DNA of 64,000 nucleotides from an uncultured Gammaproteobacteria bacterium (GTDB lineage: Bacteria > Pseudomonadota > Gammaproteobacteria > CAWCPV01), in assembly GCA_963797555.1 (NCBI GenBank), contig CAWCPV010000004.1, forward strand, positions 64,001 through 128,000. The letters run 5' to 3'. The position numbers and the translations under genes are program-made. Below the pieces are notes generated by a model, which saw only the letters and a program-made list of their open reading frames with translations, searched no databases and was not told the origin of the DNA. Below are positions 10,078 to 62,934 of this stretch, in pieces. Position 1 is the first letter of the stretch; every line of letters starts with the position of its first letter.

Positions 10078-10694
10078 CCCGCCCCGACGTAGAAGACCGA
10101 AGTCTGGGAATCGGAGACGGTTCCGGCCTGAACCTTGTGCTCGATAACGTAAGTTCCGTGGGGGGCGTTCCCTGGTATCGGAATCCCGGCTTGTGCCACG
10201 TAGCCGCCGGCAGAGCGTTGTACGGGGGGCTGCGCGAGGTTGGCGAGCACTTTGCCGTCTTTGGTCAGCGCCCACGACTCGACCACATCGACCTGCGAGG
10301 TCCCAGGGGGCAGGATGACCGAGTAGTCCGTCGATACGTTGACTTCCTGGCCGGGCTGCACGTTCTGGGGCGCAGCGCTGGACTTGCGCACGACCACCGA
10401 GGTGCTGTCGGGTGGAGCCGTCAAGCCATAGATCCGGTTGTCCGACTGCGAAGAACGTACTTGAGCTGAACGATACTGGCTCACCTTCACGGTTCCCCAG
10501 CCGATGGCCGCTCCGGCCGCGGCGGACGCCAGGCATGCTGCCGTGTTACCATGCAGCGCGGTACAGAGCAGTCCGCCCGCCAGGCCGCCGACTGCCGCCC
10601 CCCCGAGCTGTTGGTTCTGTTCGGTGGTTGCGCAGCCTGCGGCGAGGCTTAGAGAAAGCGCAACCACGACTGCGCACTTCACTGGTCCAGACAT
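10074..10694 (-). CDS. Glycine-zipper lipoprotein
   Basis: Lipobox LAAG-C, then GGAAVGGLAGG..AAAGAAIGWG and a beta-rich C-terminal domain. Confidence 0.75.
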   Translation of the reverse strand: MSGPVKCAVVVALSLSLAAGCATTEQNQQLGGAAVGGLAGGLLCTALHGNTAACLASAAAGAAIGWGTVKVSQYRSAQVRSSQSDNRIYGLTAPPDSTSVVVRKSSAAPQNVQPGQEVNVSTDYSVILPPGTSQVDVVESWALTKDGKVLANLAQPPVQRSAGGYVAQAGIPIPGNAPHGTYVIEHKVQAGTVSDSQTSVFYVGAG

Positions 10695-10745: not shown

Positions 10746-11924
10746 TCACTCGTGCCTAGTGCCCGCTGGCGCCGCGGCCGGGGACTCGAAGTATGGATCG
10801 CCGTCGGGAACAGCGGGAATGATCTCGGCGAGGCGATCCAACTGCTGCTTTATACCGCCGACCGGGGGCGGCTCGATGGCCTCGAAGTGTGCCCCCTCGT
10901 AGCTGAACTTGCCGCTGCCGGAGGGATACTCTATGCCTATCTTCAGCGCGTGGGACTCCCCGTCGGGGGGAATGTAGGAGCGGAATGTCAATACGTAATC
11001 ACTCTGCAGAATATTTTGGATGTCTTCGACGATGGCCTGCATCCGGTCGACTGTTTTCCCAACCGGAAAGTAGAGGCCGAAGGAGTTCTTGGAAAGCGCC
11101 TCCAGGTTCTTGAAGTGTTCCGGGCTGAGGTGGGAGTAGGCTATGGAATAGATCGGAATGGGAATGGCCAGGCTGGTGATTCGATTGTTGAGCTCTTCCC
11201 GGGACAGGGCGCTTCCCTCGTCTTTGCCGTCGGAGAGGACCACCACCGAGCAAGACACGACGAAGTTCTCCGGGCTAGGCGTCACCGATCCCTGTGCAGT
11301 CATGGCGCACATCTGCATCGCCGCACCGATCGCGTCGTACAGCCGAGTCCTGTGGCCATCCGCTTTAACGTCCATGAGGCGGCGCCCGAGTGCGGCGGCA
11401 TCCCGCTCGAACAGGGAGACCACCTGGTAGCCCTCAGGCGTGTCCCGGACTGACAGGATCGCCACCTCGTCCTGGGGCCGCTTGCTGTCGATGAACCGGG
11501 CGGCGGCGCGAAGGGCTGCATTGAACGGCGCGCCGGCCATGGATTTGCTCGCGTCCAGGACCAACACCGAGCGTATGGCCTCCTGGCGCTGCCTCAAAGT
11601 GTTCACGAGATACTGGCGCTTGGTCGGATCATAGGCCCGGCCCTTGACCATCAGCCCGATATTCCGTTCGTTCAGGTTCACGAGCGGCCGCATATTCGCG
11701 TCGAAGGTCCGGAAGTAGACCTGGACGAAGGGATACAGACCGTAGTTCACGGAATAGATCTTGAGGCCGTAGCCACCAGGAGCCCCGGGGGCGAAGGTCT
11801 GCGCCGCGCTCGGCGAGACACACAAGGGTGCCAGTAGGAAGAGCACCGCGGCGCAAATTGCGCGCAGCCATGTGTTCCTGCTGAAAACTTGGAAAGCAGG
11901 GGCGTCATCGGTGCACATCGGCAT
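10746..11924 (-). CDS. Exported von Willebrand factor A (VWA) domain protein
   Basis: Signal peptide (..SPSAA-Q) and MIDAS motif DASKS..T..LSDG. Confidence 0.85.
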   Translation of the reverse strand: MPMCTDDAPAFQVFSRNTWLRAICAAVLFLLAPLCVSPSAAQTFAPGAPGGYGLKIYSVNYGLYPFVQVYFRTFDANMRPLVNLNERNIGLMVKGRAYDPTKRQYLVNTLRQRQEAIRSVLVLDASKSMAGAPFNAALRAAARFIDSKRPQDEVAILSVRDTPEGYQVVSLFERDAAALGRRLMDVKADGHRTRLYDAIGAAMQMCAMTAQGSVTPSPENFVVSCSVVVLSDGKDEGSALSREELNNRITSLAIPIPIYSIAYSHLSPEHFKNLEALSKNSFGLYFPVGKTVDRMQAIVEDIQNILQSDYVLTFRSYIPPDGESHALKIGIEYPSGSGKFSYEGAHFEAIEPPPVGGIKQQLDRLAEIIPAVPDGDPYFESPAAAPAGTRHE

Positions 11925-11959
11925 TTCCTCCCGGTTGGTGTGGTGTTGGATGCGTCGCT

Positions 11960-13711
11960 TCAATAGACCTTTTCCGTGCGCTTTGGAATGATCGTCCATT
12001 GCGTGTTCTCCTCGGACTTGGGCGAGTGTGCAGTCGACCGTCTCGGGGGCGCCTTCCGTTCCGCCCTGGCGCCGGTGGCGACGTCTCTGTCTCGCGACGT
12101 GCTGATCTGGGCCTGGACGGTCTGGCCCTTTGCCGCGGGACGAGTGTCGGGTCGGGGGGCTGGTGGAGGCTCCGGCGCCTGGGGGCCCGCAGAAGGTGGT
12201 AGCTCGTCCTCCCGCTTCAGATGCTGCTCGAGAATTTCCATTGCGGTCGGCTCGGACGGCGCCGTGGCGGAGGTCGAGGCTGTCTCGGCGCTGACGGGCG
12301 GCTTCGCTGCTACGGGCGCAGGACCGGTCTTTGTAACCGGTGCGGGGCCGCTTTTTGCGCCGGCGGTCTGGGGAAGCGCAGGCGTCTCGACCGGATGGGT
12401 CTCCTGTGGGAGCTCAGGTCCGCGCCCGGCGGCGGGGGGGACCTGCGGGGTTGGGCTGGGCCGCCGCTCGACCGAAACCGGGTGCGGACCGCTCTGGTAG
12501 TTCCACCAGATACCGATGGACGCCGCGGCGGCGACCGCGGTCAGCACGGTCACCGTCACCCATGGCCTTCGGGTTCGGGTTACCGGCCTGGATGGCCGGG
12601 CCACCCCCGGCGCCGTTGTCGGGATTCTGAGGCTGTGAGGTGCGGTCACGGGCCGCGCCGCGGCTCCCGTCACCCGGACCGTCTTGGTATTGGGGACAGA
12701 AACGTTCACCTCTCCCGCCTGAAGTGCTTCCGTGAATTCCCGGATCGACTGCTGGCGGTTGTTGGGGTTCAGCTCCAAGGCCCGCAGGAGCGTCTCATCG
12801 AGCGTCGACGGCAGACCGGGTACCTTGGACGACGGCGGGGCAACCTCCTTGCCGGCCAGCCGTTCGTTCACGGCTGGTGGAGTGTCTCCGGTCAAGAGCA
12901 TGTAAACCGTTGCGGCGAGCGCGTAGATGTCCGACCGCGGGTCGGTGCCGGTACCCATGACCTGCTCGGGCGGGCTGAAGCCATAGGAGGCCGCACGGGC
13001 CTGCAAGCGGGTCATGGAGGAGGGAGTCGACTCCTTGGCGATGCCGAAGTCGATGAGCATGACCCGGTCGCTGTCGTCGAGCAGAATATTCTCCGGCTTG
13101 AGGTCCCGATGGACGATGGGGGGCTGCTGGGAGTGCAGGTAGGCGAGCACCTCGCAGAGCTGGCGCATCCACGGGAGCAGAACAGGCAGCGCGATGCGGC
13201 CCCCCACGCGGATCCTCTCGGTTTCCAGGGTGCGACTGCCTCCGAACTCGAGCACCAAGTACATCATCTCCCCGACAGTGAAGCGGTCGATGATGTCCGG
13301 TATCGAGGGATGGCTGAGTCGGCTGAGAACCTCGATTTCCTGCTCGTCGAATTGAGGCTTGGGGATCTCCTTCAGGGCACGTTTCTTGTCCTTGAGGCGC
13401 ATGTCCTCGACGAGGTAGGTCGCCGCGAACCCACCTTTCCCGAGGATTCCTTTTATCCGATAGCGGTCTTGGATGACGTCCCCGGGGGGGTGGAGCCACC
13501 CAAGAATGCCGCGTACCGAGCCATTCGGTGCAACGTCGAGATGCGCGAGATCGAAGCCGCAGTGCTGGCAGCGTGTGTTGGACGGACCCAGGGCCGCCGG
13601 ATCGTTCGCCCCGCCGCACTTCGGACAGGTTCTCCCCCCGGAGTCTGGCTCGAGGGTCCGAACGCCGTCCTTCGAGCTCCCCTCGGGCGCGGCGTCAACG
13701 ATCTGGTTCAT
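11960..13711 (-). CDS. Membrane Hanks-type Ser/Thr kinase with N-terminal zinc ribbon and Pro-rich extracytoplasmic tail
   Basis: CPKC..CQHC, GKGGFA, ALKE, HRDLKPEN, DFG, PPEQ and one TM helix. Its own ATG (13711) overlaps the corrected stop of the upstream transporter. Confidence 0.9.
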   Translation of the reverse strand: MNQIVDAAPEGSSKDGVRTLEPDSGGRTCPKCGGANDPAALGPSNTRCQHCGFDLAHLDVAPNGSVRGILGWLHPPGDVIQDRYRIKGILGKGGFAATYLVEDMRLKDKKRALKEIPKPQFDEQEIEVLSRLSHPSIPDIIDRFTVGEMMYLVLEFGGSRTLETERIRVGGRIALPVLLPWMRQLCEVLAYLHSQQPPIVHRDLKPENILLDDSDRVMLIDFGIAKESTPSSMTRLQARAASYGFSPPEQVMGTGTDPRSDIYALAATVYMLLTGDTPPAVNERLAGKEVAPPSSKVPGLPSTLDETLLRALELNPNNRQQSIREFTEALQAGEVNVSVPNTKTVRVTGAAARPVTAPHSLRIPTTAPGVARPSRPVTRTRRPWVTVTVLTAVAAAASIGIWWNYQSGPHPVSVERRPSPTPQVPPAAGRGPELPQETHPVETPALPQTAGAKSGPAPVTKTGPAPVAAKPPVSAETASTSATAPSEPTAMEILEQHLKREDELPPSAGPQAPEPPPAPRPDTRPAAKGQTVQAQISTSRDRDVATGARAERKAPPRRSTAHSPKSEENTQWTIIPKRTEKVY

Positions 13712-16015
13712 CGTCCCTCGCGATCCTTTAGTTTCAGCCCCAGGAGGGCAACGACCAGGAACACCAGTCCCAGTGCGGCGACTGCCGCCAGGTCGCCCCA
13801 GTAGCCGCCCGATAGCGGCACCACCGGCTGACCCGCGAGATCTCGCGCCGAGGGTGCCCGGGCCGAGGGTCGCTTTGGCGGCGTCGAAGGCCCAGAACGA
13901 TATCATCGTGACCTTTGCGGTGGCGAGGGCCAGTCCCTGCAACCTCACGACGGCGTCCGCCAGGACCACCTGGGGGACGAGCAGAATGGGAACGACCGCG
14001 ATCGCCTTGTCGTTGGTGCCGACAAACGCGCTGACAGCCAGCCCCATGTTGGTTGCGGCCATCGCGGCGGCGAATAGCGCGAGCAGGCGCTTCCCGGTAT
14101 CGCCTTCGAGCGGTACGAACGGCGCAACGACGCAGAGCAACAACACGCACTGGATACCACAAAGAACCGCAAGCGGGATCAGCTTGCTGGCCACATAGGG
14201 CGCAATGCGGAGATTGACCGACCGCTCCCGCAGGTAGACGGGAAGCTCCTTCACGATCTCCCGGGCGGAGTTGAGGCATCCGAACCAGATCGCGGCCAGA
14301 ACGAGGACGAACGTGACTTGGCCGTGCAGCGCTGCGGGGAGGGGGCCATCGGTGTGGAAGACCAGAGCCACCACGCCCGCGATCGCCGGCGCCTGCAGCA
14401 GCAGGATTGCCAGGTTCCGCCGGTCCGCCAGCAGGAGGTCGAGATACCGCCGTATCAGGATCCCGGCCTGAGACAGAGCAAACGAGCCTCCGGGCTCGCT
14501 GACGATTGTGGCCGGAACCCCTGCCGCTGCGTCGTTATCGGCGCCGCTCGGCAGCGCCATGCGCGCCGCGACGTATTTTTGATAGTGCTCGCTGCCGGCG
14601 AAGCGCCCCGCCCACTCGGGCCCAGGGGCCGTCTCGAGCACATCATAGACCTCCGCCAGCCGCCGTACGCCGAAGAACTCCGGGGCATCTCCGGGAGGCC
14701 CGAAAAACACCAGACGTCCCTGATGGAGCAGCGCCACGAGGTGGCAAGCGTCGATGTTCTCGAGGCTGTGCGTGACGCAGATCACCGTCTTGTGGTCCGA
14801 GGCCAGATCGGCGAACAAATGCATCATGCGCTTGTCGGTAGCGGCATCCAGGCCACTCGTGACCTCGTCGAGGAATAGCAGATTCGGGTTCGCAACCAAC
14901 TCCACGGCCAGGCTGACTCGTTTGAGCTGACCGCCGCTCAACGGCGCGGGCGTATCGATGCGAAACGTGGCCTTCTCGCCGAGACCCACCCGCTCCAGCA
15001 CTCGGGCGATGTGGTCGTCGATCTCTCCGTTCGACGTATCCGGAGGCAGCCGGAGCCGAGCGGTGTAGCGCAGAGCGTGATCGATGGTAATCCGCCGGTG
15101 AACGATGTCCTGCTGGGGCACGTATCCGATGGCCGAGCGGAACTGGTCGAAGGCATCGTACAGACTGGACCCGTTGTAGAGCACCCGGCCGCCGGTCGCC
15201 GCGCGGCGTCCGCTCAGAGCATCGAGCAGCGTAGACTTGCCGGAGCCGCTGCTGCCAAACACGCCCACGAACTCGCCCGGCTCTACGGTCAGGTCGATAT
15301 CGTCGAGGAGACGACGCGTGGACTGCCCCGTGCGGTCACGAACCTCCTTGTAGAGCCCCTGGGCCTGCACGCGCACGGTTCCGCTGAGGTCTACCGGCTC
15401 CAGGGCCTCTCCCGTGAAGGAGAAGACGAACGTCGCGATCTCGACACGATCGCCGGGTTGAAGCGCTGTCCTGTCCGCGACACGGCGCCCATTCACGAAC
15501 ACGCCGTTGGTGCTCTGCAGATCCTCCAGGATGACTCGCGAGGGCTCGCAGATGAGCCTCGCATGGTGTCGCGACACCAAGGGCGAGGGGAGAGTGAAGT
15601 CGCACTCGGGGAGTCGTCCGATGGTGAGCACCGTGCTGGCGCGAGGACCCTGCGGGCTGGCGTCGGAGGGCCAGGTCGGCGCGGTGGTCTTGTCGGTGAC
15701 CACCCTTAGCTGAAAGGGCGTTTGTCCGAGGAGCAGCCAGTCCCCGTCGCCGATGGCCGAGGGGGCACGGATGGACAGGCCATTCACGGCGATAGCGTCG
15801 CTACCTACCGGCTCGACGGACAGCGCCGCGCCGGTGAAGCGAAACCGGGCATGCCGGGCCGCGATCCCAGCGCCCCCGAGAACGATATCGCTCCCGGCAT
15901 CGCTGCCGAGCACGTAGTCCCTTCCGGCAGACAGGTCCACACGGGTCCGCTGGCGGGTGAAGGAGCTCAGGAGTTCGACCTGCGCGCCTGGCTCACTCGC
16001 CGTGTTGTCCGCCAT
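13708..16015 (-). CDS. FHA-FHA-ABC ATPase-permease transporter (Rv1747-like), one-base frameshift near 13841
   Basis: Two FHA domains (the second with GR..SRHHA..STNG), Walker A GSSGSGKS, LSGGQ, LDE and an ABC-2 membrane domain. The last TM helix (GYWGDLAAVAALGLVFLVVALLGLKLKDREGR*) is in a shifted frame ending at 13708. Confidence 0.88.
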
Positions 16016-16527
16016 GTAGCCGTATCCTCGCTATACGGGGATCATGCGCACGCGGAGCCTCCGGCGGACTCGCGCGAACCGCTTCGGGCAAGGGACGACA
16101 GCGGGCTGTGCGGTGTGTGGGTCCCGCCGGCGCTGTTCGTTCGTCCCGATCTCTTCGCCGCGCGGGCTGCCGCTGCGCCGGGCATCTCCCCTGACAGCCC
16201 GGTTTCGACGGGTCGGTCCACGGCGGACACGCTGGCGGATGGACCGGAGCTTCGGCATCGGAGTCCTCCCTGGCATTGGGGACCTCCTCCGATGCAAAAC
16301 AGCGGCTGAGTGCGCACGGCCGGTGCGTTGCGGGAAGGAGATCAACCCGGTCACCTGCCGGAGCCTCCAGTGACCGCCGAGACATCCGGCCGCCATGCTC
16401 TTCGGGTTCCACCCGGACGGCCTCGCGCACGGCGGCTATGGGGAGGCCACCCCCTCATTTGCCGGATGAACCCCAAAAAGGCCAAGTTCCTATCCGTCAG
16501 CACGCGACATCGGTCCGTCGCCACACT

Positions 16528-17352
16528 TCACGACAAGAACTGCCCGACCAGAATAAGGACGAGCATCATCAGGCCAAAAGTCACTAAAACAAATCCGAAG
16601 GACTTGCCGCCCACGCGAAGCCATTTTGGAGGAGGTCCGGTTCTCCGCTTGTCAAGCTCCCGGGTGTCTCTGAGCCTCTGAAGCTCCAGGGGCTTGTCGT
16701 GCTCCATTTCCTCCAGGGAGAGCCTCCCCGTAAAAATAACCGTGTCCATGGGAAATTTTTCCGGCCTAAGGTGAGTGTTAAAGAAGTGTATGGTGAAGAT
16801 GAAGCCGGCGGCAAGCAGCGCCTCTTCGCTGTGTATTATGTGCGCCACATTGAATATCCATCCAGGCAGAAACCGGCTGAAGAGATCCGGAAACCAGAGC
16901 AGGAGCCCCGAGAGTCCTATCATTCCTACGCCCCAGAAGACTGCCCAATAGTCGAACTTCTCCCAGTACGTCCATCTGTCGAAAACGGGCCGAACGCCCA
17001 GGCCCAGGAACCACTTGAAGCTTTGATAAACGTCCTGGATGTCTCTCCAATTTGGCACCATGGACTCGGGTCCAAAAATATCGAAGCGAAATCTCTTTTT
17101 GACAGCGATGAAGTAAGCCACGAACAGGAGGTGAGCACTGAAGTACCCGAAGGTTATGACAGCACATGCTCTGTGGATAAGACCCGCCATCTTGTACCCG
17201 CCGAGAATCCTCATGAATGGCGCCGCCCAGGCCGCGTAATGGTATTTGAGGGGCATCCCGGTTATGACCAGACCGAGGAAACTAATGGCCACGAAGACGT
17301 GCAGGACCCTGTGGTAGGGGCTCAAGCGCTTTATGTAGACGGCTTCATCCAT
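16528..17352 (-). CDS. Di-heme cytochrome b membrane subunit (FdnI/CbcL b-domain-like)
   Basis: [43 protein letters not shown] and several TM helices. Confidence 0.85.
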
Positions 17353-18319
17353 TTCCTTCACCCCGTTTCCGTTCGAGAAGCGTGCGTAATATCCACAGAA
17401 AAGTATGCAGCAGGAAAAAAGCAAATACGCCGATGAGAAGGATCTTCATGAACCAGTGCGTGTAGAAAAGAACGGGGTATTTCGCCCTATTGTGTTCGTC
17501 GGGGTGAGGATGGTACTCGGTGATGCCCCGGCCTGCGAATAGGTGGCATGTTCGGCAGGTGCCGAGGATTTTGCCGCTCGAGATGGTCGAAGCCGCCGCG
17601 CTTTTTGGCAAGATCTCGTGGAAGCCGTGACAGTCCGAACATTTGGCAACGGTGGTGTATCCGAGGTGGGTAACCTCGCCGTGTATTGTCTTACGGTAGG
17701 TCTCCAGCCTGTGCTTGTGGCAGCCACCGCACTCCTCGATTAGCCAGAGCTTCCAGCGATCTTCCGTCACTCGAGGCGCCGCGTGCTCCATGTGGCAGTC
17801 ATAGCAAATGGCAGCCTTCAGATCGCCCTTCTCGAGGACCTCGGTGCCATGGATACTGCGGCTGTATATCTTATATTCGAAATAATGGCAACCGGAGCAC
17901 AGCTTAGGGACATTTTGCCTGTAAGTCCTCGAATCAGGGTTGTCAGATGGAAGGATTTGGTGCGTGCCGTGGCAGGTCTTGCACGCAGGCCCGGACCCTT
18001 TTCGCACCGCTTCTGCATGAGGGCTCTGGCTGTAGGCACGGGCCGCTTTCTGTGAGGCGCCCAGACCGCCGGTCAGGTGGCAGGAGTCGCAGTCCACCCT
18101 GTGGACCGTCCCGTGAGGGTAGCCCTTGACCCTGGTGTGGCATTGGGTGCACTTGAGGGCTTTGTGGACAGACTGGCGCAAAAGGGACTCATCTATATAT
18201 GGCGTCATCCCTTTCTGGCCGTGGCACGAAAGGCAGGACTCCTGTGCGCGAGCTTGGTGAGGAACAGAGAGTGCAATGAGCCCTGAGGCGAACAAGACCG
18301 CCGATGCGATATAACGCAC
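17345..18319 (-). CDS. Nine-heme periplasmic cytochrome c with C-terminal membrane anchor
   Basis: Signal peptide and 9 CxxCH motifs (CLSCH, CTQCH, CDSCH, CKTCH, CSGCH, CYDCH, CGGCH, CSDCH, CRTCH). GTG start with GGAGGAGG. Confidence 0.9.
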   Translation of the reverse strand: MRYIASAVLFASGLIALSVPHQARAQESCLSCHGQKGMTPYIDESLLRQSVHKALKCTQCHTRVKGYPHGTVHRVDCDSCHLTGGLGASQKAARAYSQSPHAEAVRKGSGPACKTCHGTHQILPSDNPDSRTYRQNVPKLCSGCHYFEYKIYSRSIHGTEVLEKGDLKAAICYDCHMEHAAPRVTEDRWKLWLIEECGGCHKHRLETYRKTIHGEVTHLGYTTVAKCSDCHGFHEILPKSAAASTISSGKILGTCRTCHLFAGRGITEYHPHPDEHNRAKYPVLFYTHWFMKILLIGVFAFFLLHTFLWILRTLLERKRGEGNG

Positions 18320-18576
18320 TTATCCTCCTCCCCGGCCCCGTGATGGCAAAATAGGAAACCGGGTTCCCTTATCCCTTAGGCTTCAAGAAAGGGGCGAGCG
18401 CCGTGGCCTTGCCCTTACAAGACTGCGGCACTCTCGCGCGTGTCCAGTTTCAGGCGGAGGCCGGTCGGCCGCACCCTGGCATCGATGAGAACGTCGACGA
18501 TCCCCGCGGCCCCCGGCAAGCCCACCTGCGCGACTCCCCCGGCGGGCTGGGCTCGGAGACCGCATCATATCCCAAT

Positions 18577-26300: not shown

Positions 26301-26634
26301 GGGAACGCGCCGGCATACGTTCGAGCCGAGACAGGCTCACCGGTCATGGCGATATTCGCCGCCCCCCAATGTGAAAACGGGTTCCGCCGCCATGACCGGT
26401 CGCCTAACCCCGCACGTCCCGTCCCTCAGCGCCGGACTCGCCTGCCGAAGACCGGAGCGATCGTTCCCTGCTCCCTCCGGCAGAACAGCTACGGACGAGG
26501 CGAATGAGAGACACAAAGGGCACCTGCGGCGCATTCTCACGGTACGGAATAGTATGCTGTCCCCGCCGGTTCAGGACAACCGCATGCCAAGCCAGGGAAA
26601 GCGCCGACCCCGACCGCTCGCGTGATTGCTGCGG

Positions 26635-28750
26635 CTATCTGATACGCAGCCCCGGCACCGCCCCGGGATCGGGCCCAATAAGCCACAGGTCTTTCCCCCC
26701 TGGGCCCGCCGCGAGGACCATCCCCTCGGAGACTCCGAAGCGCATCTTGCGCGGTGCCAGGTTGGCCACCAGAACCACCAGCCGCCCCTGGAGGTCCTGC
26801 GGGCTGTACGCCGAGCGGATACCGGCGAACACGTTGCGGGTCTCCCCGCCGAGGTCCAGGGTCAGCCGAAGCAGCTTGTCGGCCCCCTCGACATATGCCG
26901 CCTTCACCACTCGGGCAACCCGCAGGTCGACCTTGGCGAAGTCCTCGTAGCCGATCTCCCGCAAGGACAGGCTCTCCCGGCGCCTGCGCCATGGCCTCTT
27001 TACGGGAGGCAGCCTCCTCCCGAGCAGCCGCGAGCATCGCCTCGACCTGCCTGCCCTCGATGCGCCTCGCGAGGTGCTCGTATGGCCGGATGACATGGTC
27101 CGTGAGCGGCGGGCTCGAAGCATCCGCCCACGTGAGCGGAGGGATGTCCAGGAACGCCTCCACCTTCTCCGCCATCTTCGGGAGCACGGGCTTGAGATAT
27201 AACGTCAGGAGCCGGAAGGCGTTGACGCCGATGCTGCACACGACATGCAGCTCCTGGTCTTTCGACGAATCCTTGGCCAGATCCCAGGGTTTGAATTCAT
27301 CGATGAAGCCGTTTGTCAGATCGGCCAGACGCATGACCTCGCGGAGCGCCTTGCCGTACTCGCGCATTTCGTAAAGCTGGGAAATATCCGTGCTTCGCTC
27401 ACTGATCTCCTCCAGTACCTCGACCCGCTTTACCGCCCGCGGGACTGCGGCCAGCCGCTCGCCTCCCAAGGGAGGGCTGGCCAGGCGGTCCAGGTGTTCT
27501 GGTATCCCTGGGCTTTCGAGGCTGGGTGCCAGCCGCCCTTCGAAACGCCTGGTGATGAAGCCCGCCGTCCGCGCTGCAATGTTCACGTACTTGCCCACCA
27601 AGTCGCTGTTCACCCGAGCGGCGAAGTCGTCGAGGTTCAGGTCGATATCCTCGACCAAGGGGTTGAGCTTCGCGGCGAAGTAATAGCGCAGGTACTCGGG
27701 GTCGAGGTGGTCCAGGTAGGTGCGGGCCCGGATGAAGGTGCCGCGCGACTTGGACATCTTCTCTCCGTTGATGGTGAGGAATCCGTGCGTGAAGATGGCA
27801 TCGGGCTTGCGAAACCCCGCCCCCTCCAGCATCGCCGGCCAGAAAAGCGCGTGGAAGTACACGATGTCCTTGCCGATGAAGTGATACAGCTCGGTGCCGG
27901 ACTCCCTCCCCCACCACTCGTCGAAGGAAAGATTCAGGCGAGCGCACAGATCCTGGAAGCTCGCCATGTAGCCGACCGGCGCGTCCAGCCAGACGTAGAA
28001 GTACTTGCCCGGGACGTCCGGGATCTCGAAGCCGAAATACGGCGCATCCCGCGACACGTCCCAGTCGCGCAGACCTTCCTGGAACCACTCCTCCAGCTTG
28101 TGGGCGACCTCCGGCTGCAGATGCCCGCCGTGAATCCACTCGCGCAGCATAGGAGCAAAAGCCTGCAGCTCGAAGAAGTAATGCTCCGACTCCCTCTGCA
28201 CCGGTGGAGCGCCGGACAGGACCGAGACGGGGTTCTTCAGATCCCAAGGCGAGTAGGTCGCACCGCATACCTCGCAGCTATCTCCGTACTGGTCTCGTGC
28301 TCCACAGCGCGGACACTCCCCCCGAATGAAGCGGTCCGGCAGGAACATCTCCTTGATCGGGTCGTAAGCCTGGGTGACGGTGTGCGTGGCGATGTGGCCT
28401 CCGTCCCGCAGCCGCTGGTAAATCAGATACACCAGTTCGCGGTTCTCCGGGGAGTGGGTGGTGTAGTAATTGTCGAACGCGACGGCGAAATCCTCGAAGT
28501 CGGCCCGGTGCTCGCGACCGACCCGTTCGATCAGTTCCTCCGGTGAAATGCCGTCTTGGGCGGCCCGCAGCATGATGGGCGTACCGTGGGCGTCGTCGGC
28601 GCACACGTAATAGCACTCGTGGCCGCAGAGCTTGTGGTAACGGACCCAGATGTCCGTCTGGACGTATTCCACCAAGTGACCTAGGTGGATGGGCCCGTTG
28701 GCGTACGGCAGCGCGCTGGTCACCAGTATCCTGCGGGGAGTGTCGGCCAT
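26635..28750 (-). CDS. metG: Methionine--tRNA ligase, extra G near 26959 before the C-terminal tRNA-binding domain
   Basis: [13 protein letters not shown], zinc knuckles, KMSKS. The Trbp111-like domain ([24 protein letters not shown]) is in a shifted frame ending at 26635. Confidence 0.95.
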
Positions 28751-29164
28751 CGTCGTGGAGGAGATCCCGTCAAAAGTTGTTAAATTATCACCGAGCAGGC
28801 GCGGCCGCCAATGCAGCCGGATAACCCTGGGGTCCGCAGTGGCACTGGGCGACGCTAGACCGCTGACCGTCGATTCAGCCAGCGACCCCGCAAGTCCCAG
28901 GTGGCCGAATGCCACGGGGGAAAGACCATAGTCGCGAAGCGTGCGGTCGTGAATACTTTGTTTCTCTTGGCGCGTACTGGCCACAAGGCGGCAGCACGGA
29001 GCACCGAGCCTTGACCCGACAGGAATGTCCAGAAGGTTACATCGATCTCGAACGACGGTTTCGGGACTTTTCTGACGCGGAGAGCCCGGAGGACGCCTTC
29101 GTGAGGAGTTACCTCGCCGCGGCCAGGGAGGCGAAGCCGGTCTAGGTGGAACGAGGAAGTACAG

Positions 29165-29394
29165 ATTCCTCCCGGCGGGGCCTATGGCGCCAAGGTCGCT
29201 ACTGCCGAGCTTGAAACGCATGGGTTCAGGATCTGGCCGACCAGATCGATGAGCTTTGGCGGGTGACTGCGGGGCATGCGCTGCACATCAAAGTCACGGT
29301 GGAGTTCGGGGAAGCGGGCAAGGTTGATCAGCCGGTGGTCGGTGGGGTCCATGCCATCCTGAGCAGGGTCAAACCCGGGTGGAAGGTGAGTTGA
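29165..29394 (+). pseudogene. C-terminal remnant of a larger protein, resembling DUF499-family ATPase C-termini
   Basis: Start-less frame ..[52 protein letters not shown]. The resemblance is from memory only. Confidence 0.4.
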
Positions 29395-29582
29395 ATGGAC
29401 GTTGAGAGGCAGACAAGGCCTGATGTCTATGGACGTCCGGGGAGTCTTTTGCATGACCCCGGTTTCGCGAGCGCGACCCTGGCGCGCGCATGTACCCGCT
29501 TGACGGCAGGATTGAGAGTGCCCGTTGGACAGAGAAACGACGACTAGAGTTGACTATATGATGCAGATATAAGCTTTCCAGC

Positions 29583-29611
29583 TTGACAATGTAAAATCAC
29601 TCACCGATAAT
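29583..29611 (+). promoter_or_regulatory. Sigma70 promoter of the island operon
   Basis: TTGACA-17 nt-GATAAT in an AT-rich patch, 70 nt upstream of ATG 29681. Confidence 0.75.
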
Positions 29612-29680
29612 GCAGCAACGGATATGCTCGCGAGCTGGCACTTCCGCCCGCGGCCCAACCGTCAGTTCACAGGTCTCCAT

Positions 29681-30256
29681 ATGGCGGAAAACGAGACGCT
29701 GGACCTACGACAGACCCCGCGCTGGAACCACGCCAGGCAGTTGCTGGAACGGGGTGCTTCGCCCGAGGAGGTTGCCGCCGAAGTCCGCCGCTGTCTCCAC
29801 TGGACGCTCAGGCGCTTGGGGGAGCTGATGCCGATGCCGCTCGCGGATCTCATTCGGTGCGCCGCCGCAGGCGATCCGCGGGTGGCTGCCATGGTCCGCG
29901 AAGCACGGAAGGCGCGCGACTATGTTCAGATCATCGAACGACTCGGAAGTTTCTGCCGTGACGACCCTGAGGCGCTCGCTCGCCGCGTCATCGGCACGAT
30001 CGCCGGACGCTTCTTTGACCAGGAATGCGAGCGCCTCGTCCCGAGTGAACGTCTGCCCACGTTTCAGGAGTTCGAGCGGGCGAGGCACGATATCGAGACG
30101 CGCCTGGCGGCTCCCATCAAGGCGCTCGCACGAGAACTGCTGGAGCATCCCGAGCGTTCGCATCGGATGCCGGCTTCGCTGAAAAAGGCGCCAGATGATG
30201 CCTTGCGGTCGACACTCAGCATGTCGCTCTTGGCCGAACCAGCGAAACACGGATGA
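29681..30256 (+). CDS. Hypothetical alpha-helical protein, in the QatB position upstream of the QueC-like gene
   Basis: 191-aa ORF whose stop overlaps the next ATG (ATGA). An alternative start exists at 29624. Confidence 0.7.
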   Translation: MAENETLDLRQTPRWNHARQLLERGASPEEVAAEVRRCLHWTLRRLGELMPMPLADLIRCAAAGDPRVAAMVREARKARDYVQIIERLGSFCRDDPEALARRVIGTIAGRFFDQECERLVPSERLPTFQEFERARHDIETRLAAPIKALARELLEHPERSHRMPASLKKAPDDALRSTLSMSLLAEPAKHG

Positions 30257-31606
30257 GCGCGAGGACCGCGACATATCAGGTCACGTATGACCCGCATTCG
30301 CCCCTGAGCCCCGATGTCGTGGGAGCAGCGGTGCGTTATCACCTGGACGAGGAGGGCTTCAGCCGGCGTCTTCTGTCGCAGCCGGCCGCTCGCCTCCAGG
30401 ACCTCCTCCGCATCGCTATGGGGATTTATGCGGTAGACCGACGGGAGAAGCGGTCGTACCGCTCGACGTGGGCGGGACCATCGAGGGACATCACGGTCCA
30501 GATTCAGGTTGAAGATCTCGGCTTTTGGTCCGACAAGCAGGTCGCCGGGCTGATTCAGGACATCGTCAGGTTTCTCAGCGATGACTTCTGGGATGTCTCC
30601 TTTATTCCTCGCACGGGCAAGGGCCGCTCCCGTGCCGAGTTCCTGCCCTTTCCGAGCGAGTCTGATCCCCTGGTCTGCCTGTACAGCGGTGGTCTGGACT
30701 CGGCCGCTGGACTCGCCAACCGGCTGCGCCAGCACCAAGGACCAGTTTACGCGGTGACAGCCGCCCACCGCCCGGAGCTGAAGGGGCGGTGCGAACGGCA
30801 CGCTCGGACGCTGTCGGCCCACTACCGCCGGAATGGTTCCGGCCGCTTCATCCACCACCCTACGCAATCCCCCGCGGATGGCATACCAGGAGCTGAGCCA
30901 ATGCTGCCGGGCTTTCCTGTTCACCACGCTCGGGGCCGTGACCGCCATCGAACACGGGGCCGAGAGGGTCGAGGTGTATGAGAATGGCGTCGGTGCGGCC
31001 AACCTGCCGCCCATGACGGGGATGTGGGTTGGGGGACGCAGCACCAAAGGCTGTCATCCCCACTTCCTTCGCCTCATGGGTGAGCTGGCCAGCCGGGTTG
31101 CCGAGCGCAAGGTTGGCTTCGTACTGCCCTTCGCAGACAGGACCAAAGCGCAGACGGTCCATACCCTAATAGAAGACGGCCTCGAGCGACTCGCCTTCGA
31201 TACCGTGTCGTGCGTGCACCATTCGCCCCGTGTATCAGGCGGCAAGCAATGTGGGACCTGTTTCGCCTGCCTAGGTCGAAGACAATCCATGCTGACAGCG
31301 GGATTTCAGGAGCCGGCGGGAGCGTACCTGTACGACCTCTTCGGTCCGGAGGCTGGCCGCGTCCCTGGGTCGTACCTTCACGAGCTGAAGGCCACCCTGA
31401 TGCAGGTGGACCAACTGCGCTGCATCACTTCGGAAACAGTGCTGCCCGAGCCCTTGCGGCCGTGGCTCATAGGAACCCATGTCGTCCGCGACGTGTCGGA
31501 GGTCCGCCCATGGCTGGCCGCACTGGCCCGCTATCGCGACGAGTGGCTGGCTCTGGCCGAGCGCTGTCGGCAGGAAGGTGCAGGCTGGCCGCGGTGGCTG
31601 AATTAG
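30253..31606 (+). CDS. QueC-like (QatC-type) PP-loop ATPase, one-base frameshift near 30831
   Basis: N-terminal DLL..A..YAVDR..R extension, SGGLDS, ELSQCCRAFLF, ENG, STKGCHP, T.SC and CGTCFACLGRR zinc site. Span is 3n+1. Confidence 0.85.
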
Positions 31607-31635
31607 CGACTACGACACCAACGAGAACCATCGGC

Positions 31636-32859
31636 ATGGCTCAACCGTCCAGCGTAGACCGTCACACGCTCGCGCAGCGGCTCCTTCAGGCTCGCAAGGC
31701 ATCCGGGATGACCCAGGAGCAGGCGGCGCAACACCTGGGATACAGCCGCCCCACCTTTATCGCGATCGAGAAAGGCAGCCGTTCGGTCACGCCGGAGGAG
31801 ATCGTCAAGCTCGCGGCCTTGTATCAGCGCAGCGTCCACGACCTAGTCCGTTCGGGACCCACCGCGGCGCCCTTGGAACCTCACCTGAGGGCGGCGGCCG
31901 CCGCTGTTGGCCAGGAGTCCGCCGAGCTCGAGGAGGCCATCCGCGTCCTGCAAGGATTCGCGGATGACTACCGACAGCTAGAGACTCTCGTGGGCGCCGT
32001 CGGACCGCGAGAGTTCCCTCCCGAGGTCGCCCTGTCCTCTCGAGTGCCGATCCGGGAGTTCGCGGAGGATATCGCCATTCGCGAACGAGGCCGTCTGCAC
32101 CTGGGCGATCAGCCTGTCCTGGACCTTCGTTCGCTGGCCGAGGAAGCAGGGGTGCACGTGTTCTATTGGGAGATACCGTCGCCGATCGCGGGCATGTACG
32201 CGTTCGTCCCGGACTTGGGCTACTGCATCCTCATCAACCGCAAACACCCTCCCGAGCGGCGCCGGTGGACCCTGGCCCATGAGTACGCTCATTTTCTCTG
32301 CGACCGGCACCGGCCGGGCATAGACTTCCTGGCCGAGTCCAAGCGCAAACCCCTTAACGAGCGCTTCGCCGACGCGTTCGCAGCGGCTCTACTGATGCCC
32401 GAGACCGGGATACGACGGCACTTTCTCGTCGTGACTGCTAGCACGGACGACTTCCAGACAGCGGACTTGTGCCGGTTGGCGAACACCTATTTCGTTTCGG
32501 TGCAAGCGATGGCATACCGCTTGGAGGACCTCGGCCTCCTTCCCAAGGGGGCATGGGAGGTGTTGCTGGAGCGTGGCTTCAAGCCCACCCTGGCGAGGCA
32601 GACGTTGCGGTTGGAGGCACCGTGCGCCGAATCCGGTGACGCCGTCCCGGAGCGGTACCGCTACCTCGTAGTTCATGCCTATGTTCAGGAGAAGATTACC
32701 GAGGGTCAGCTCGCCGGGTTCCTGCGGACGGACCGTGTCTCCGCTCGTGAGATGGTGCTCGCCGCCATGAGTGCTAGGGAGGTGGACAGCCAAGGTCGCG
32801 AGCAACTCCTGGAAATTCCCCTGGCACGATCCCTGTTCAAAATCGCCCCCGAGGCTTGA
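31636..32859 (+). CDS. XRE-HTH + ImmA/IrrE (M78) zinc metallopeptidase
   Basis: RL..AR..GMTQEQAA..SR..IEKG HTH, RRWTLAHEYAH, E..ADAFAAALLMP, and VS..A..YRL. Confidence 0.92.
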   Translation: MAQPSSVDRHTLAQRLLQARKASGMTQEQAAQHLGYSRPTFIAIEKGSRSVTPEEIVKLAALYQRSVHDLVRSGPTAAPLEPHLRAAAAAVGQESAELEEAIRVLQGFADDYRQLETLVGAVGPREFPPEVALSSRVPIREFAEDIAIRERGRLHLGDQPVLDLRSLAEEAGVHVFYWEIPSPIAGMYAFVPDLGYCILINRKHPPERRRWTLAHEYAHFLCDRHRPGIDFLAESKRKPLNERFADAFAAALLMPETGIRRHFLVVTASTDDFQTADLCRLANTYFVSVQAMAYRLEDLGLLPKGAWEVLLERGFKPTLARQTLRLEAPCAESGDAVPERYRYLVVHAYVQEKITEGQLAGFLRTDRVSAREMVLAAMSAREVDSQGREQLLEIPLARSLFKIAPEA

Positions 32860-32866
32860 ATGCGGC

Positions 32867-33412
32867 ATGGAGGCGGTCGTTATCGATAGCTGTTGCCTGA
32901 TCAACCTGTATGCAACGGGCAAACTGGGGCAGCTACTGGAGACCGTGGGCTGGTCTTGGAAATTACCCGAGGTGGTTGCCCGAGAGGCGCTGTACCTACG
33001 CGTTAAGGATGCAGAAGGCAACCCGGGCCGGGAGGCTATTGATCTCACCCCATTTGTAAGCACCCGCCTTCTCCAGACCGCCGCGCCGCAAACCGAAACC
33101 GAGTTCGCCGCCTACGTGGATCTGGCGGTTGCAGTCGACGACGGCAAGGCGATGGCCCTGGCCCTTGCTGTTTGCCGTGGCTGGCGCCTGGCCACCGATG
33201 ACGCCAAGGCCCTGCGCACGGCGGAGCAGAAAGGCGTGAAGTGCGTCACGACTCCGGAGATCATAAGGCAATGGGCCGAGGCCACCGCGGCACCGACCGG
33301 AGAAGTCGCGGCCATGCTGATGGCGATTCAGGAGCGGGCGCGATTCGCTCCGCCACGGAGTCACCCGCTCGGCCGTTGGTGGGCGCGTTCTTTGGAAGGG
33401 ATCGAGGGCTAA
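32867..33412 (+). CDS. PIN-domain protein (DUF3368-like), putative toxin
   Basis: VVIDSCCLIN, PEVV..E, DDG(K)AMALALA and LATDD. It lies 7 nt after the ImmA gene. Confidence 0.8.
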   Translation: MEAVVIDSCCLINLYATGKLGQLLETVGWSWKLPEVVAREALYLRVKDAEGNPGREAIDLTPFVSTRLLQTAAPQTETEFAAYVDLAVAVDDGKAMALALAVCRGWRLATDDAKALRTAEQKGVKCVTTPEIIRQWAEATAAPTGEVAAMLMAIQERARFAPPRSHPLGRWWARSLEGIEG

Positions 33413-33455
33413 TGACTGCAATCGTGCACACGCCGGGGGACGTGCGACTGCGCCA

Positions 33456-33727
33456 TCACCGCGGCATGTGTTGTTGAGCATTGATACCTTCAAGCAGCAC
33501 TACGGGAAAGGAGTCGCTGCCGAGGGTCATCAGCCCTTCGCCGGCCGTGAAGTGGTAGATCTCCTCGCTGAGACGGTGGCGGTGCAGGACGGTTCGGACA
33601 CCAGGCGCCACTGTGGCTTCGGCAAGACTCGTCGGCGATTCCCATGGCGGGCCGGGTGCATCAGTTCACGGATAACCGACCCGTCCTTGGTAACGTAGGG
33701 GGTGACCGTCGCGTAGGGGATTCTCAC
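33456..33727 (-). pseudogene. Frameshifted, apparently C-terminally truncated cupin
   Basis: YVTKDGSVIRELMHP, then a shifted frame SLAEATV.PG..TVLHRHRLSEEIYHFTAGEGLMTLG..FPV. The second cupin motif (GD....PPG..H) is missing. Confidence 0.65.
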
Positions 33728-34175
33728 ACCCGCAGTACGAGATTTACTCTACAAATTTATAATTACGGAACGTTCTGTGTGGTTTAAATTTCCTGTCACG
33801 CTTCTGGACTGGTAGAAGTAAGGATGCCGGCGCTGGCGACGCGGCGCTTGTGCAGCGCATTTTCACGGTGACGCCACTTTGCGCCGGGGTGGCTCACGGA
33901 TCAGTCCTTTATCGCACCCTCGCCCAGACATCACTTTCGGTGTCCATCGAGTAGCGCAAGTGGAGCGGCCGTTGGCGAAGGGCACGCCCCTGGTTGCCAA
34001 CATCCCGCGAAGGGTGCCCGCCATAGCCCCAGAGGGAGACCCCGCTAAAACAACTGATTAAATAACCACCGCATCGGCGCGGTTGCCAATGCCGCCGGAT
34101 GACGCCACGACTCCGATTGCACTAGAATATCGGCTAGCGGCGAGGCAGTTTCCCTCAAAAATCAGGAGGTTTCTC

Positions 34176-35267
34176 ATGGCGGACATTTCACGGCAACAGG
34201 TGGAAGCGGCGCTCAAGGAGGTTGTCGACCCTTACGTCAAAAAGGATCTGGTTTCTTCCAACGCCGTCAAGAACATTGCCATCGACGGCGGTCGGGTCAG
34301 CGTCGACCTCCATCTGGGCTACCCCGCCAAGCGCTATCATGCGGAGCTGGCCAAGGCCGTCCAGGACAAGGTCGAGGCCATCGGGGGCGTCACCGAAGCC
34401 ATCGTCAGCGTGGCCACTAAGATCGCCGCCCACAGCGTCCAGAAGGGCGTCACGCCCATGAAGAACCTGAAGAACATTATCGCGGTGGCCTCTGGCAAGG
34501 GCGGGGTCGGCAAGTCGACGGTGGCAGTCAACCTCGCCCTGGCGCTTTCCACGGAGGGCGCCAACGTGGGTATCCTGGATGCCGACATTTACGGACCCAG
34601 CCAGCCCCGAATGTTGGGCATCCACGCCAAGCCGGAGTCCAAGGACGGTAAGACCCTCGAGCCAATCGTCAGCTACCACCTCCAGTCCATGTCCATCGGC
34701 TACCTGATCGACGAAGAGACCCCGATGATCTGGCGCGGCCCGATGGTGACCCAGGCCCTGGAGCAACTGCTCAAGGACACGAACTGGAAGGATCTGGACT
34801 ATCTGGTGGTGGACCTGCCGCCGGGGACCGGCGACATCCAGCTCACCCTGGCCCAGAAGATCCCGGTCAGCGGGGCGATCATCGTCACGACCCCCCAGGA
34901 CATCGCCTTGCTCGACGCCCGCAAGGGCTTGAAGATGTTTGAGAAGGTCAACGTCCCCGTATTGGGCATCGTGGAGAACATGAGCATCTACATCTGCCCG
35001 AAGTGCGGCCACGAGGACCACATCTTCGGCGAAGGAGGCGGCCGCCGCATGGCGGAGGAGCATGAGGTGGACTTTCTGGGTTCGTTGCCGCTCGACGCCC
35101 GTATCCGCGAAGCCGTCGACAGCGGGAACCCGTCGGTGGTATCGGAGCCCGATGGGCGCGTGGCCCAGATGTACCGGGAGATCGCGCGCCACGCTGCGGC
35201 CAAGCTGTCCCAGCAGGCCAAGGACTATACGACCAAGTTCCCCAGCATCGTCATCCAGAGCAATTAG
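34176..35267 (+). CDS. apbC: Iron-sulfur cluster carrier ApbC/Mrp
   Basis: SGKGGVGKST, DADIYGPS, WRGPM, DLPPGTGD and ENMS..CPKC. Confidence 0.95.
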   Translation: MADISRQQVEAALKEVVDPYVKKDLVSSNAVKNIAIDGGRVSVDLHLGYPAKRYHAELAKAVQDKVEAIGGVTEAIVSVATKIAAHSVQKGVTPMKNLKNIIAVASGKGGVGKSTVAVNLALALSTEGANVGILDADIYGPSQPRMLGIHAKPESKDGKTLEPIVSYHLQSMSIGYLIDEETPMIWRGPMVTQALEQLLKDTNWKDLDYLVVDLPPGTGDIQLTLAQKIPVSGAIIVTTPQDIALLDARKGLKMFEKVNVPVLGIVENMSIYICPKCGHEDHIFGEGGGRRMAEEHEVDFLGSLPLDARIREAVDSGNPSVVSEPDGRVAQMYREIARHAAAKLSQQAKDYTTKFPSIVIQSN

Positions 35268-58545: not shown

Positions 58546-58550
58546 CATTG

Positions 58551-61482: not shown

Positions 61483-61495
61483 GGTACAAGGTGAG

Positions 61496-61673
61496 CGGCA
61501 GCGCCGAGAATGACCGACACGTCATGGGTGCGAGCCCGCGGCGTTAGCCGACGCCTTGGTGCGAGCTCGTCTCTGAGCATGGTCCGGGAATCGTCGGTGA
61601 CATGGGTGAGCGGCGCGAGCCGCATCCCGTTTGAGAGATCGAGTCGATTTCGATGCTTCCCATGGCGCTGCCG
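61496..61673 (+). ncRNA. Candidate IS110 bridge RNA (structured non-coding left end)
   Basis: A 10-bp closing stem CGGCAGCGCC/GGCGCTGCCG encloses two stem-loops (ACCGAC/GTCGGT and CATGGG/CCCATG). It lies directly upstream of an IS110 recombinase start. Confidence 0.6.
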
Positions 61674-61698
61674 TTCCTCAACGATAGTGGAGCAGGCC

Positions 61699-62930: not shown

Positions 62931-62934
62931 CCTG

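Follow-up and report, generated by a model that had tools for sequence, protein, structure and literature searches.

An unnamed four-gene cassette joining a QatC-like enzyme to a metallopeptidase and a PIN-fold protein, present as an apparently degenerate copy in an uncultured gammaproteobacterium

Two described anti-phage systems, type IV CBASS and QatABCD, each encode a QueC-family enzyme alongside a partner protein. In type IV CBASS this enzyme, Cap9, acts on the N-terminus of its partner, and deazaguanylation has been reported for the Cap9/CdnD pair; likewise, a peptide from the QatB N-terminus bearing NDG has been reported (PMC13639016), with the modification reaction and its route to phage restriction stated as open (PMC13279940). 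In a survey of the QueC family (PMC13329287), qatA and qatD genes are found near only about a third of the QatC cluster, and other partners are not described. A different arrangement, in which a fusion of a helix-turn-helix (HTH) domain to a DUF955 (M78) domain is followed by a PIN-like gene, has been described as a three-component toxin-antitoxin layout (PMC5499597), and the defence system RosmerTA has a Zn peptidase as its antitoxin (bioRxiv 10.1101/2022.05.11.491447). Here we describe a cassette in which features of both arrangements stand side by side. It lies in a 64,000 nt stretch of DNA from an uncultured gammaproteobacterium (contig CAWCPV010000004.1, positions 64,001 to 128,000), hereafter 'the window', to which all coordinates without a locus label refer, and consists of four forward-strand genes. 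These encode P1, a 191 aa all-helical protein that occupies the QatB position and represents a new family (29681-30256); a QatC-like QueC-family enzyme of about 450 codons, interrupted by a +1 frameshift (30253-31606); a 407 aa XRE-HTH/M78 (ImmA/IrrE) metallopeptidase with a C-terminal domain (31636-32859); and a 181 aa PIN-fold nuclease-like protein (32867-33412). The reading we favour, at a probability of roughly 0.6, is that the window contains a degenerate copy of a conserved unit, which moves and evolves as a whole and whose role is most likely anti-phage defence. The cassette is widespread in bacteria and so far unnamed: as a preliminary description of the locus had anticipated, the combination carries no name in PADLOC-DB 2.0, NCBIfam or the literature searched, and full-text searching, which did not extend to the supplementary neighbourhood table of PMC13329287, found no paper joining QueC or QatC with ImmA, M78, PIN or Rosmer.

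The cassette resembles each of the closest described systems in part. In common with QatABCD, its QueC-family enzyme is extended at both termini and carries the QatC motif set, and a small helical partner is encoded directly upstream, the extreme N-terminus of which is conserved; as in QatBC (PMC13279940, PMC13639016), this N-terminus is predicted to lie at the active-site region, with the helices of the partner on the enzyme's C-terminal extension. However, no clade locus has the QatA ATPase or the QatD TatD nuclease, the XRE/M78 peptidase and the PIN protein standing in their place, and the partners themselves are unrelated in sequence, QatB starting with G-T-S and ending in a tail of 30-90 residues, P1 starting with A-E-N-E and ending in one of about 12. 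The Cap9-CdnD pair offers an analogy, in that a QueC-family enzyme is joined by a partner from the same operon with a conserved N-terminal motif, but Cap9 is minimal (about 185 aa), keeps the CDG-binding Tyr/Asp (PMC13329287, PMC13279940) and has a CD-NTase as its partner. The second half of the cassette follows the layout of RosmerTA and of the HTH-DUF955 and PIN loci (PMC5499597), with a fused XRE-HTH/M78 peptidase preceding a PIN-like gene; by contrast, the PIN protein matches no RmrT model, the peptidase-PIN pair is here always accompanied by P1 and the QueC-like enzyme, and the peptidase shares its tail with P1. Similarly, the pairing of an M78 peptidase with an HTH repressor over a defence or stress operon in CapH/CapP, IrrE/DdrO and ImmA/ImmR is analogous, but in this cassette HTH and peptidase form one polypeptide and a nuclease gene follows.

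One line of evidence that the four genes form a unit is their recurrence. A scan of one genome per species, queried with the enzyme profile, gave 63 loci: 59 in the clade of the window enzyme, three canonical QatABCD loci (L060-L062, with PADLOC matches to QatA at 9e-219, QatB at 3e-84, QatC at 1e-112 and QatD at 5e-94) and one weak partial match (L063). Homologues of the peptidase and the PIN protein follow the enzyme in the same order and on the same strand in 54 of the 54 clade loci whose contigs reach the fourth gene; the other contigs stop within or just after the enzyme gene (L001, L011, L016 and L056) or inside the peptidase gene (L018). P1 was found directly upstream of the enzyme by hidden Markov model (HMM) in 56 of the 59 clade loci and by eye in L033, where the protein begins VAENEML and was missed by the model; the contigs of L003 and L049 begin too near the enzyme gene for P1 to be judged. 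In the window the genes are all co-oriented and separated by -4, 29 and 7 nt, the first of these being an ATGA start-stop overlap between P1 and enzyme that is also present in several related loci. Where records name a host, it is mostly from the Planctomycetota, with Vicinamibacterales (Acidobacteriota), a Verrucomicrobia metagenome-assembled genome, Xanthomonadales/Lysobacterales, Nevskiales genera and Burkholderiales making up the rest. A few loci have one gene split by frameshifts or stops, namely L020 (enzyme), L010 and L059 (peptidase), L007 (P1) and L017 (PIN protein). In L007, a Vicinamibacterales locus, about 1.1 kb of extra DNA (9449-10597) lies between the enzyme and peptidase genes.

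The four proteins have also diverged together. Pairwise-identity matrices over the 43 loci with four unbroken genes were correlated between enzyme and P1 (rho 0.81), enzyme and peptidase (0.86), enzyme and PIN (0.76), peptidase and PIN (0.83), P1 and peptidase (0.81) and P1 and PIN (0.72), with a Mantel p of 0.001 for the four protein pairs tested. The value for enzyme and peptidase, which belong to different halves of the cassette, is as high as those within the pairs, and the correlations as a whole give no sign of module shuffling. The preliminary description had treated the QueC-like pair and the ImmA-PIN pair as parts of a single system, and both their co-occurrence elsewhere and their co-divergence are in agreement with this.

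A more distant branch of the cassette is found on plasmids. The window peptidase matched 34 plasmids in PLSDB at E<=1e-20 (26-38% identity), mostly from Rhizobiales and 22 of them conjugative, and a clade enzyme had 96 matches among PLSDB plasmids; a clade PIN gave no match when searched in plasmids, and P1 gave none by tblastn in plasmids and phages. Among the 60 enzyme matches listed, a QueC-like gene lies directly upstream of the peptidase and on the same strand in at least 23 of the 34 plasmids (22 by coordinates, one by annotation). Three plasmid records were examined, from Roseomonas mucosa, where the cassette adjoins Shedu, Agrobacterium radiobacter (pAoF64/95) and Methylocystis rosea, where it adjoins AbiE genes. 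Each has, in this order, a hypothetical gene of about 185-192 codons, a QueC-like gene, an XRE/ImmA gene and a hypothetical gene of about 200-210 codons, and the clade HMMs match the enzyme at 7e-62 and 3e-52 (full-length) and 9e-23 (the Methylocystis fragment), the peptidase at 2e-86 to 4e-97 and the PIN protein at 6e-12 to 2e-20. The P1 HMM matched none of the three first genes, and two of them, in Agrobacterium (L065 1005-1583) and Methylocystis (L066 1021-1587), start MSDGPHKSLP, which indicates that the N-terminal motif of the partner varies by branch. In the Methylocystis record, 680 nt of unannotated sequence (L066 1587-2268) precede the annotated C-terminal 237 codons of the QueC-like gene, which may be another broken copy.

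A further connection between the halves is a short motif, a hydrophobic residue followed by x-x-S-L-L, that P1 and the peptidase have in common a few residues from their C-termini. In the window it appears as S-L-L in P1 (30224-30232), where S182 is invariant across the family, and as S-L-F in the peptidase (32830-32838; family consensus S-L-L), where S399 is likewise invariant. Counted as S[LIVM][LIVMF] within the last 16 residues, the motif is found in 52 of 52 peptidases and 43 of 51 P1 sequences, against two of 50 PIN proteins, two of 42 enzymes and 3-6% of random internal windows from the same proteins. That it is common to these two proteins suggests that both tails may dock at one common site.

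Taken together, these observations bear on the possibility that two independent modules simply lie side by side: a minimal QatBC-like defence pair and a RosmerTA-like toxin-antitoxin pair that either stabilises the island or defends alone. Such an arrangement has precedents, since protection against some phages needs no more than QatB and QatC (PMC13279940), HTH-M78 and PIN pairs stand alone elsewhere (PMC5499597) and RosmerTA is itself a stand-alone defence system (bioRxiv 10.1101/2022.05.11.491447). We nevertheless consider it unlikely, as all 54 loci, from several phyla, keep both pairs in a single order and either overlapping or closely spaced, enzyme and peptidase co-diverge at the within-pair level, the plasmid branch still joins enzyme, peptidase and PIN despite a different first protein, and the tail motif is common to P1 and the peptidase but not found in the PIN protein or the enzyme.

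The affinity of the enzyme to QatC is apparent in both of its halves. Pfam recognises QueC in the C-terminal half of the window protein (2.2e-6) and no family in the N-terminal half, but the PADLOC QatC models match both (4.3e-17 and 9.4e-19, respectively). A profile of the family, the full-length members of which are 440-475 aa long, matches solved QatC structures at 7e-44 (9vlk_A) and 5e-42 (9zee_B), the match beginning within the QatC-specific N-terminal domain. The SGGLDS PP loop (30685-30702) is invariant in the family, and the zinc-site cysteines lie within SCVHH (31208-31222) and CGTCFACLGRRQ (31250-31285); these motifs and an N-terminal extension, which aligns to that of solved QatC, had been noted in the preliminary description, and the kinship with Qat that it drew from them is upheld by the model and profile matches. 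Judged against the motif list given in PMC13329287, the clade consensus keeps SGGxDS, the N-domain D..R..R, DxWxxxF, RxRxxxF, ENGxG, HP, P(x)4TK and the Cys/CGxCxxC..RR zinc site. On the NCBIfam QatC model, by contrast, four intact clade members score 164-187 bits (E 4e-48 to 6e-55), and the two halves of the window enzyme 68 and 78 bits, against a cut-off of 280 that the canonical QatC of L060 exceeds at 365; on these scores the clade is placed as a sister of QatC and not as canonical QatC. The current RefSeq annotation of the plasmid-branch genes reads 'hypothetical protein', '7-cyano-7-deazaguanine synthase' and 'XRE family transcriptional regulator', whereas the canonical copies that this search also returned bear the name qatC; the second of these is probably the wrong functional label for the clade enzyme.

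The partner, P1, belongs to a family without a match in Pfam, PADLOC or NCBIfam. A word-indexed search found just two relatives besides P1 itself, whereas a full HMMER search of 1.84 billion representatives gave 93 cluster representatives at E<=1e-3, mostly 180-200 aa long and aligned from residue 1 to residue 1; no usable match was found in the ESM Atlas. Mean column identity across 51 aligned sequences is 34%, yet E5 and S182 are invariant, and M1, A2, E3, N4, L7, D8, R14 and W15 are kept in at least 90%. The N-terminal motif M-A-E-N-E-T-L-D (29681-29704) is the presumed acceptor end, and 52 of the 56 P1 locus copies start xAENE (43 from ATG, eight from GTG and one from CTG), with three of the remainder starting MPENE and one MENES. 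A second possible ATG lies upstream at 29624, although alignments with relatives begin at the first residue encoded from 29681. In the AlphaFold2 model of P1 (pLDDT 90.6) the first dozen residues are free, followed by eight helices and a C-terminal tail of lower confidence. A 50-residue helical stretch of NccX/CnrR, the best match of the P1 profile to PDB sequences (E 0.0016), was taken as chance. For comparison, the canonical QatB proteins of L060-L062 start MGTS and carry the P..W element described in PMC13279940. The label of QatB-position protein given to P1 in the preliminary description therefore holds as regards its upstream place, its conserved N-terminus and the predicted complex described below, but does not extend to detectable homology, and P1 is on sequence grounds an analogue of QatB.

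A structure of the P1-enzyme complex was predicted for the two proteins of locus L004, with an alignment given for each, and supports binding in which the P1 N-terminus lies in the active-site region. The model scored 0.79 (0.79, 0.79 and 0.86 in separate runs), as against 0.00 for the best of three controls; the score mark applied is attained by 116 of 157 solved complexes and by two of 215 mismatched pairs. At least 67% of contacts are common to the runs, and the pLDDT of the partner is at least 76. Residues 3-9 of P1 are predicted to contact enzyme residues 68, 74-75, 108, 209-211, 248-259, 316 and 333-334, and P1 helices 79-131 the C-terminal extension of the enzyme (368-401 and 439-443); the C-terminal tail of P1 lies outside the predicted interface. 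In QatBC, similarly, the C-terminal extension and a core loop form the interface and the N-terminus occupies the active site (PMC13279940, PMC13639016). As QatBC structures have already been solved, the result of the complex model may partly reflect likeness to QatBC.

The third and fourth genes encode proteins of recognisable folds. The peptidase matches Peptidase_M78 (8.1e-21), HTH_31 (2e-12) and HTH_3 (3.1e-10) in Pfam, and RmrA (7.3e-25, the best of 16 RmrA models, over residues 13-304), capP (1.9e-21) and capH (0.001) in PADLOC; PADLOC matches to the PDC-M69A/B family were too weak to be accepted. Its zinc-binding motif is HEYAH (32278-32292), and H215, E216 and H219 of this HEXXH, together with E242, are invariant in 52 sequences, as are residues of the HTH and C-terminal domains. 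The product of the fourth gene has no match in Pfam, including the PIN models, or in NCBIfam, and no RmrT model matches it at E<=1; a PADLOC match to PDC-S70 (2.7e-5) was likewise too weak. However, its AlphaFold2 model (pLDDT 96.8) finds PIN or VapC structures as all ten of its best PDB fold matches, with probability 1.00 and TM-scores up to 0.67, which are weak by E-value (best 1.5e-3) yet consistent. D7, E40, E79 and D111 are invariant, with D92, G93, E94 and D112 nearly so, and the protein is thus predicted to have a PIN fold with conserved acidic residues and may act as a nuclease. The comparison with RosmerTA made in the preliminary description accordingly stands for the peptidase and for the PIN fold of its companion, but not for RmrT.

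Upstream of P1 is a sigma-70-type promoter, TTGACA-17 nt-GATAAT (29583-29611, forward strand), that agrees with the consensus at 11 of 12 positions and is the best of three promoter-like sites in 29000-34200, where shuffled sequence yields 0.8 +/- 1.0 sites. The single near-consensus promoter ahead of four co-oriented, closely spaced genes noted in the preliminary description is thus borne out by scan and coordinates alike, and a 5' leader of about 60 nt would be expected before the P1 start. Rfam gave zero matches at E<=1 over 28800-34300, and hence no preQ1 or other riboswitch.

Such a strong promoter suggests a need for repression, and raises the alternative that the peptidase is a CapH/CapP-like transcriptional switch only, the HTH domain repressing the promoter until a damage or single-stranded DNA cue leads to self-cleavage and induction of all four genes; the PIN protein would then have no protein antitoxin, and P1 and the enzyme would be a separate effector or helper. 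The capP and capH matches on one protein agree with this, and self-cleavage of HTH-DUF955 fusions has been proposed by Matelska et al. (PMC5499597). Against this, operator-like repeats around the promoter amount to just an 8-nt palindrome within the leader, with no palindromic operator seen, the best PADLOC matches are to RmrA antitoxins, and a conserved C-terminal domain and tail extend past the M78 domain. We regard a role confined to transcriptional switching as having a low probability, comparable to that of two independent modules.

Under the favoured reading of a single defence unit, the QatC-like enzyme would bind P1 and carry out an ATP-dependent modification of its invariant N-terminus, in analogy with the known pairs and in agreement with the modelled complex. 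The modified residue would be Ala2, once Met is removed, and the reaction would be a counterpart to the deazaguanylation of N-termini that has been reported for Cap9/CdnD and QatC/QatB. From what is known of its family, the XRE-HTH/M78 peptidase could act as repressor, antitoxin or both, silencing the operon and the PIN protein until an infection cue triggers proteolysis; the PIN nuclease, freed or induced, would then cut nucleic acid and growth of the infected cell would stop. The S-L-L tails of P1 and the peptidase might, by docking at one site, have a part in how the state of P1 reaches the peptidase-PIN pair. A bolder version, which we put forward tentatively and hold to be unlikely, is that the enzyme marks the A-E-N-E end on infection and that marked P1, through the tail that it has in common with the peptidase, then competes for, or is cut at, a single docking site, so freeing the PIN protein; this would be the first case of a QueC-type N-terminal modification feeding directly into a protease-gated nuclease.

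The cassette would then be a sister system that keeps the enzyme-partner core of Qat, with QatA and QatD replaced by parts of more easily read roles, a peptidase switch and a PIN nuclease. It would make the output of QueC-type protein modification directly accessible to experiment and would offer a second acceptor motif without an initial glycine and a shared tail motif that can be mutated, and intact copies are available in cultured, harmless bacteria and on conjugative plasmids. Carriers of such copies include Planctomicrobium sp. SH527 (L031), Lysobacter enzymogenes ATCC 29487 (L058), Dyella acidiphila (L037) and Agrobacterium radiobacter pAoF64/95 (L065). The N-terminus of the partner differs with the enzyme clade, being G-T-S in Qat, A-E-N-E here and S-D-G-P-H-K on alphaproteobacterial plasmids; if the reading is correct, these branch-specific ends would suggest a whole family of enzymes matched to their own substrates, whose chemistries perhaps differ.

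A role in defence is suggested by the neighbourhoods of the relatives. Flanks were scanned at 25 of the 54 complete loci, hand-picked for near-full 8 kb flanks, with open reading frames (ORFs) called by a simple heuristic; PADLOC covered 288 of the 307 flank ORFs, equivalent to 23 loci in full, with L022 and most of L025 outside. A non-kinase match at E<=1e-25 was found within 8 kb at 12 of the 23 loci, a raw count made without a background control. The genes concerned include HerA, a GmrSD-like gene with a type I restriction-modification (RM) system, DISARM (twice), DpdF, DpdA, Old, type III RM with Hhe, PDC-M03, ShosA with ThsB, and BilBCD. In two Planctomycetota genomes the cassette is situated inside DISARM itself, between drmA/drmB and drmD/drmMI (L013 3658-17289 and L017 528-17221). 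Both synteny and enrichment in defence islands had been named in the preliminary description as means of checking its proposal, and the four-gene order is complete in the 54 loci, with defence genes flanking 12 of the 23 scanned.

The window copy also appears to be of foreign origin. The G+C content at third codon positions (GC3) is 0.72-0.77 in the cassette as against 0.82-0.85 in neighbouring genes, and its codon usage looks foreign. The RnfA protein of the host is nearest to that of Thiohalobacter (87%), but the cassette proteins are nearest to Planctomycetota and Vicinamibacterales copies (54-57% for the peptidase), with those from Xanthomonadales farther (41-48%), a discrepancy that fits acquisition of the cassette by horizontal transfer. 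That the cassette is not a defence system at all, and instead responds to stress or DNA damage by way of a nuclease under the control of an N-terminally modified protein, would suit the housekeeping genes around the window copy and the fact that IrrE-type peptidases control DNA-damage regulons (PMC5499597), but is very improbable given the defence genes flanking 12 of the 23 loci scanned, the two insertions within DISARM, the conjugative plasmids on which the cassette adjoins Shedu or AbiE, its patchy distribution and its foreign-looking codon usage.

Several points nonetheless weigh against the favoured reading. In the same raw counts, again without a background control, eight of the 23 loci have no PADLOC match nearby and three have matches to Ser/Thr kinases only, and the window copy is surrounded by rnf, metG, apbC, dcd and thiDE and not by a defence island. 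As regards the chemistry, QatC carries two invariant Thr residues in place of the nucleobase-binding Tyr/Asp of QueC and Cap9 (PMC13279940), and the clade appears to lack this Tyr/Asp as well, having T-[RK]-[SG] there, close to the T-x-T of QatC; as these residues are not kept, the chemistry of the clade may be other than deazaguanylation. The modified N-terminal residue of P1 would moreover be Ala or Pro, and not Gly as in Cap9/QatC. No likeness between P1 and QatB was detected by sequence or profile, with no QatB among the PDB sequence matches, no NCBIfam QatB match and a probability of 0.3% when P1 was compared with three canonical QatB sequences by hhalign, using a thin profile; the modelled fold of P1 similarly has no PDB match (best E 0.54, TM at most 0.22). 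The link between the two halves of the cassette is drawn from synteny and the shared tail motif only, and shared descent alone can yield co-divergence of the kind observed. Finally, the copy in the window is itself broken.

The damage to this copy takes two forms. The first is a frameshift at about 30829-30838, established by aligning both frames with 25 intact relatives, through which the QueC-like gene passes from the frame of 30253 (30253-30981) to that of 30833 (30833-31606); all the enzyme motifs past this point are intact in the second frame. A break at this locus had been implicit in the preliminary description, which referred to a 'repaired operon', and it is present in the sequence. 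The second is substitution: each window protein was compared with its family at positions at least 90% conserved, and the first Arg of the QatC RxRxxxF motif, present in 25 of 25 relatives, was found to be replaced by Cys (30902-30904), and the Glu of the PIN DDGEA motif, present in 49 of 49, by Lys94 (33146-33148). P1 has no deviations at 12 such positions; the peptidase has five at 89, all of them conservative, two of which (L168A and A345V) fall at positions identical in 51 of 51 relatives. Elsewhere in the window a further four genes are interrupted (metG, a cupin remnant, a Transposase_29 gene and an IS110 transposase), a hint of indel errors, and on this basis the enzyme frameshift alone could be either an assembly error or real. 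The replacement of two invariant residues is damage of another sort, which suggests genuine decay, and the window copy is probably inactive, through the frameshift and Arg-to-Cys change in the enzyme and the Glu-to-Lys change in the PIN protein. In the case of metG, on the reverse strand (26537-29221 and 26635-27123), one frame encodes the catalytic part together with the anticodon-binding part and another the tRNA_bind domain of the C-terminus, which could be the result of either an assembly indel or a real truncation.

The surroundings of the cassette were searched for genes of the related pathways and systems. Among the 41 larger ORFs between 0.2 and 63 kb that were compared with Pfam, smaller ORFs lying outside the scan, there is none for queD, queE, folE, dpdA, TatD, a KAP ATPase or a cyclase, in agreement with the absence of these genes reported in the preliminary description, and no CD-NTase, Cap10 or nucleotide-activated effector is found either there or among the four cassette genes. 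No tRNA genes are present in the window, and no convincing direct repeats border the cassette island. Between the PIN gene and apbC, two short reverse-strand ORFs in different frames (33456-33727), without a Pfam match, look like one broken cupin-type gene. Farther downstream, an insertion sequence gene cluster with an rve integrase occupies 57781-62972, within which the Transposase_29 gene is split across 58576-59934 and 59850-60551 and the IS110-type transposase across 61510-62274 and 62187-62969. On the other side of the cassette, the reverse strand encodes a 1351 aa protein combining FHA, ABC-transporter ATPase, membrane and Ser/Thr kinase domains (10746-16015), adjoined by a gene for a VWA-domain protein, and, at 16500-18320, a multihaem cytochrome c and a cytochrome b561-like protein; the G+C minimum of the window, 0.54 at 17-18 kb, falls within this last stretch.

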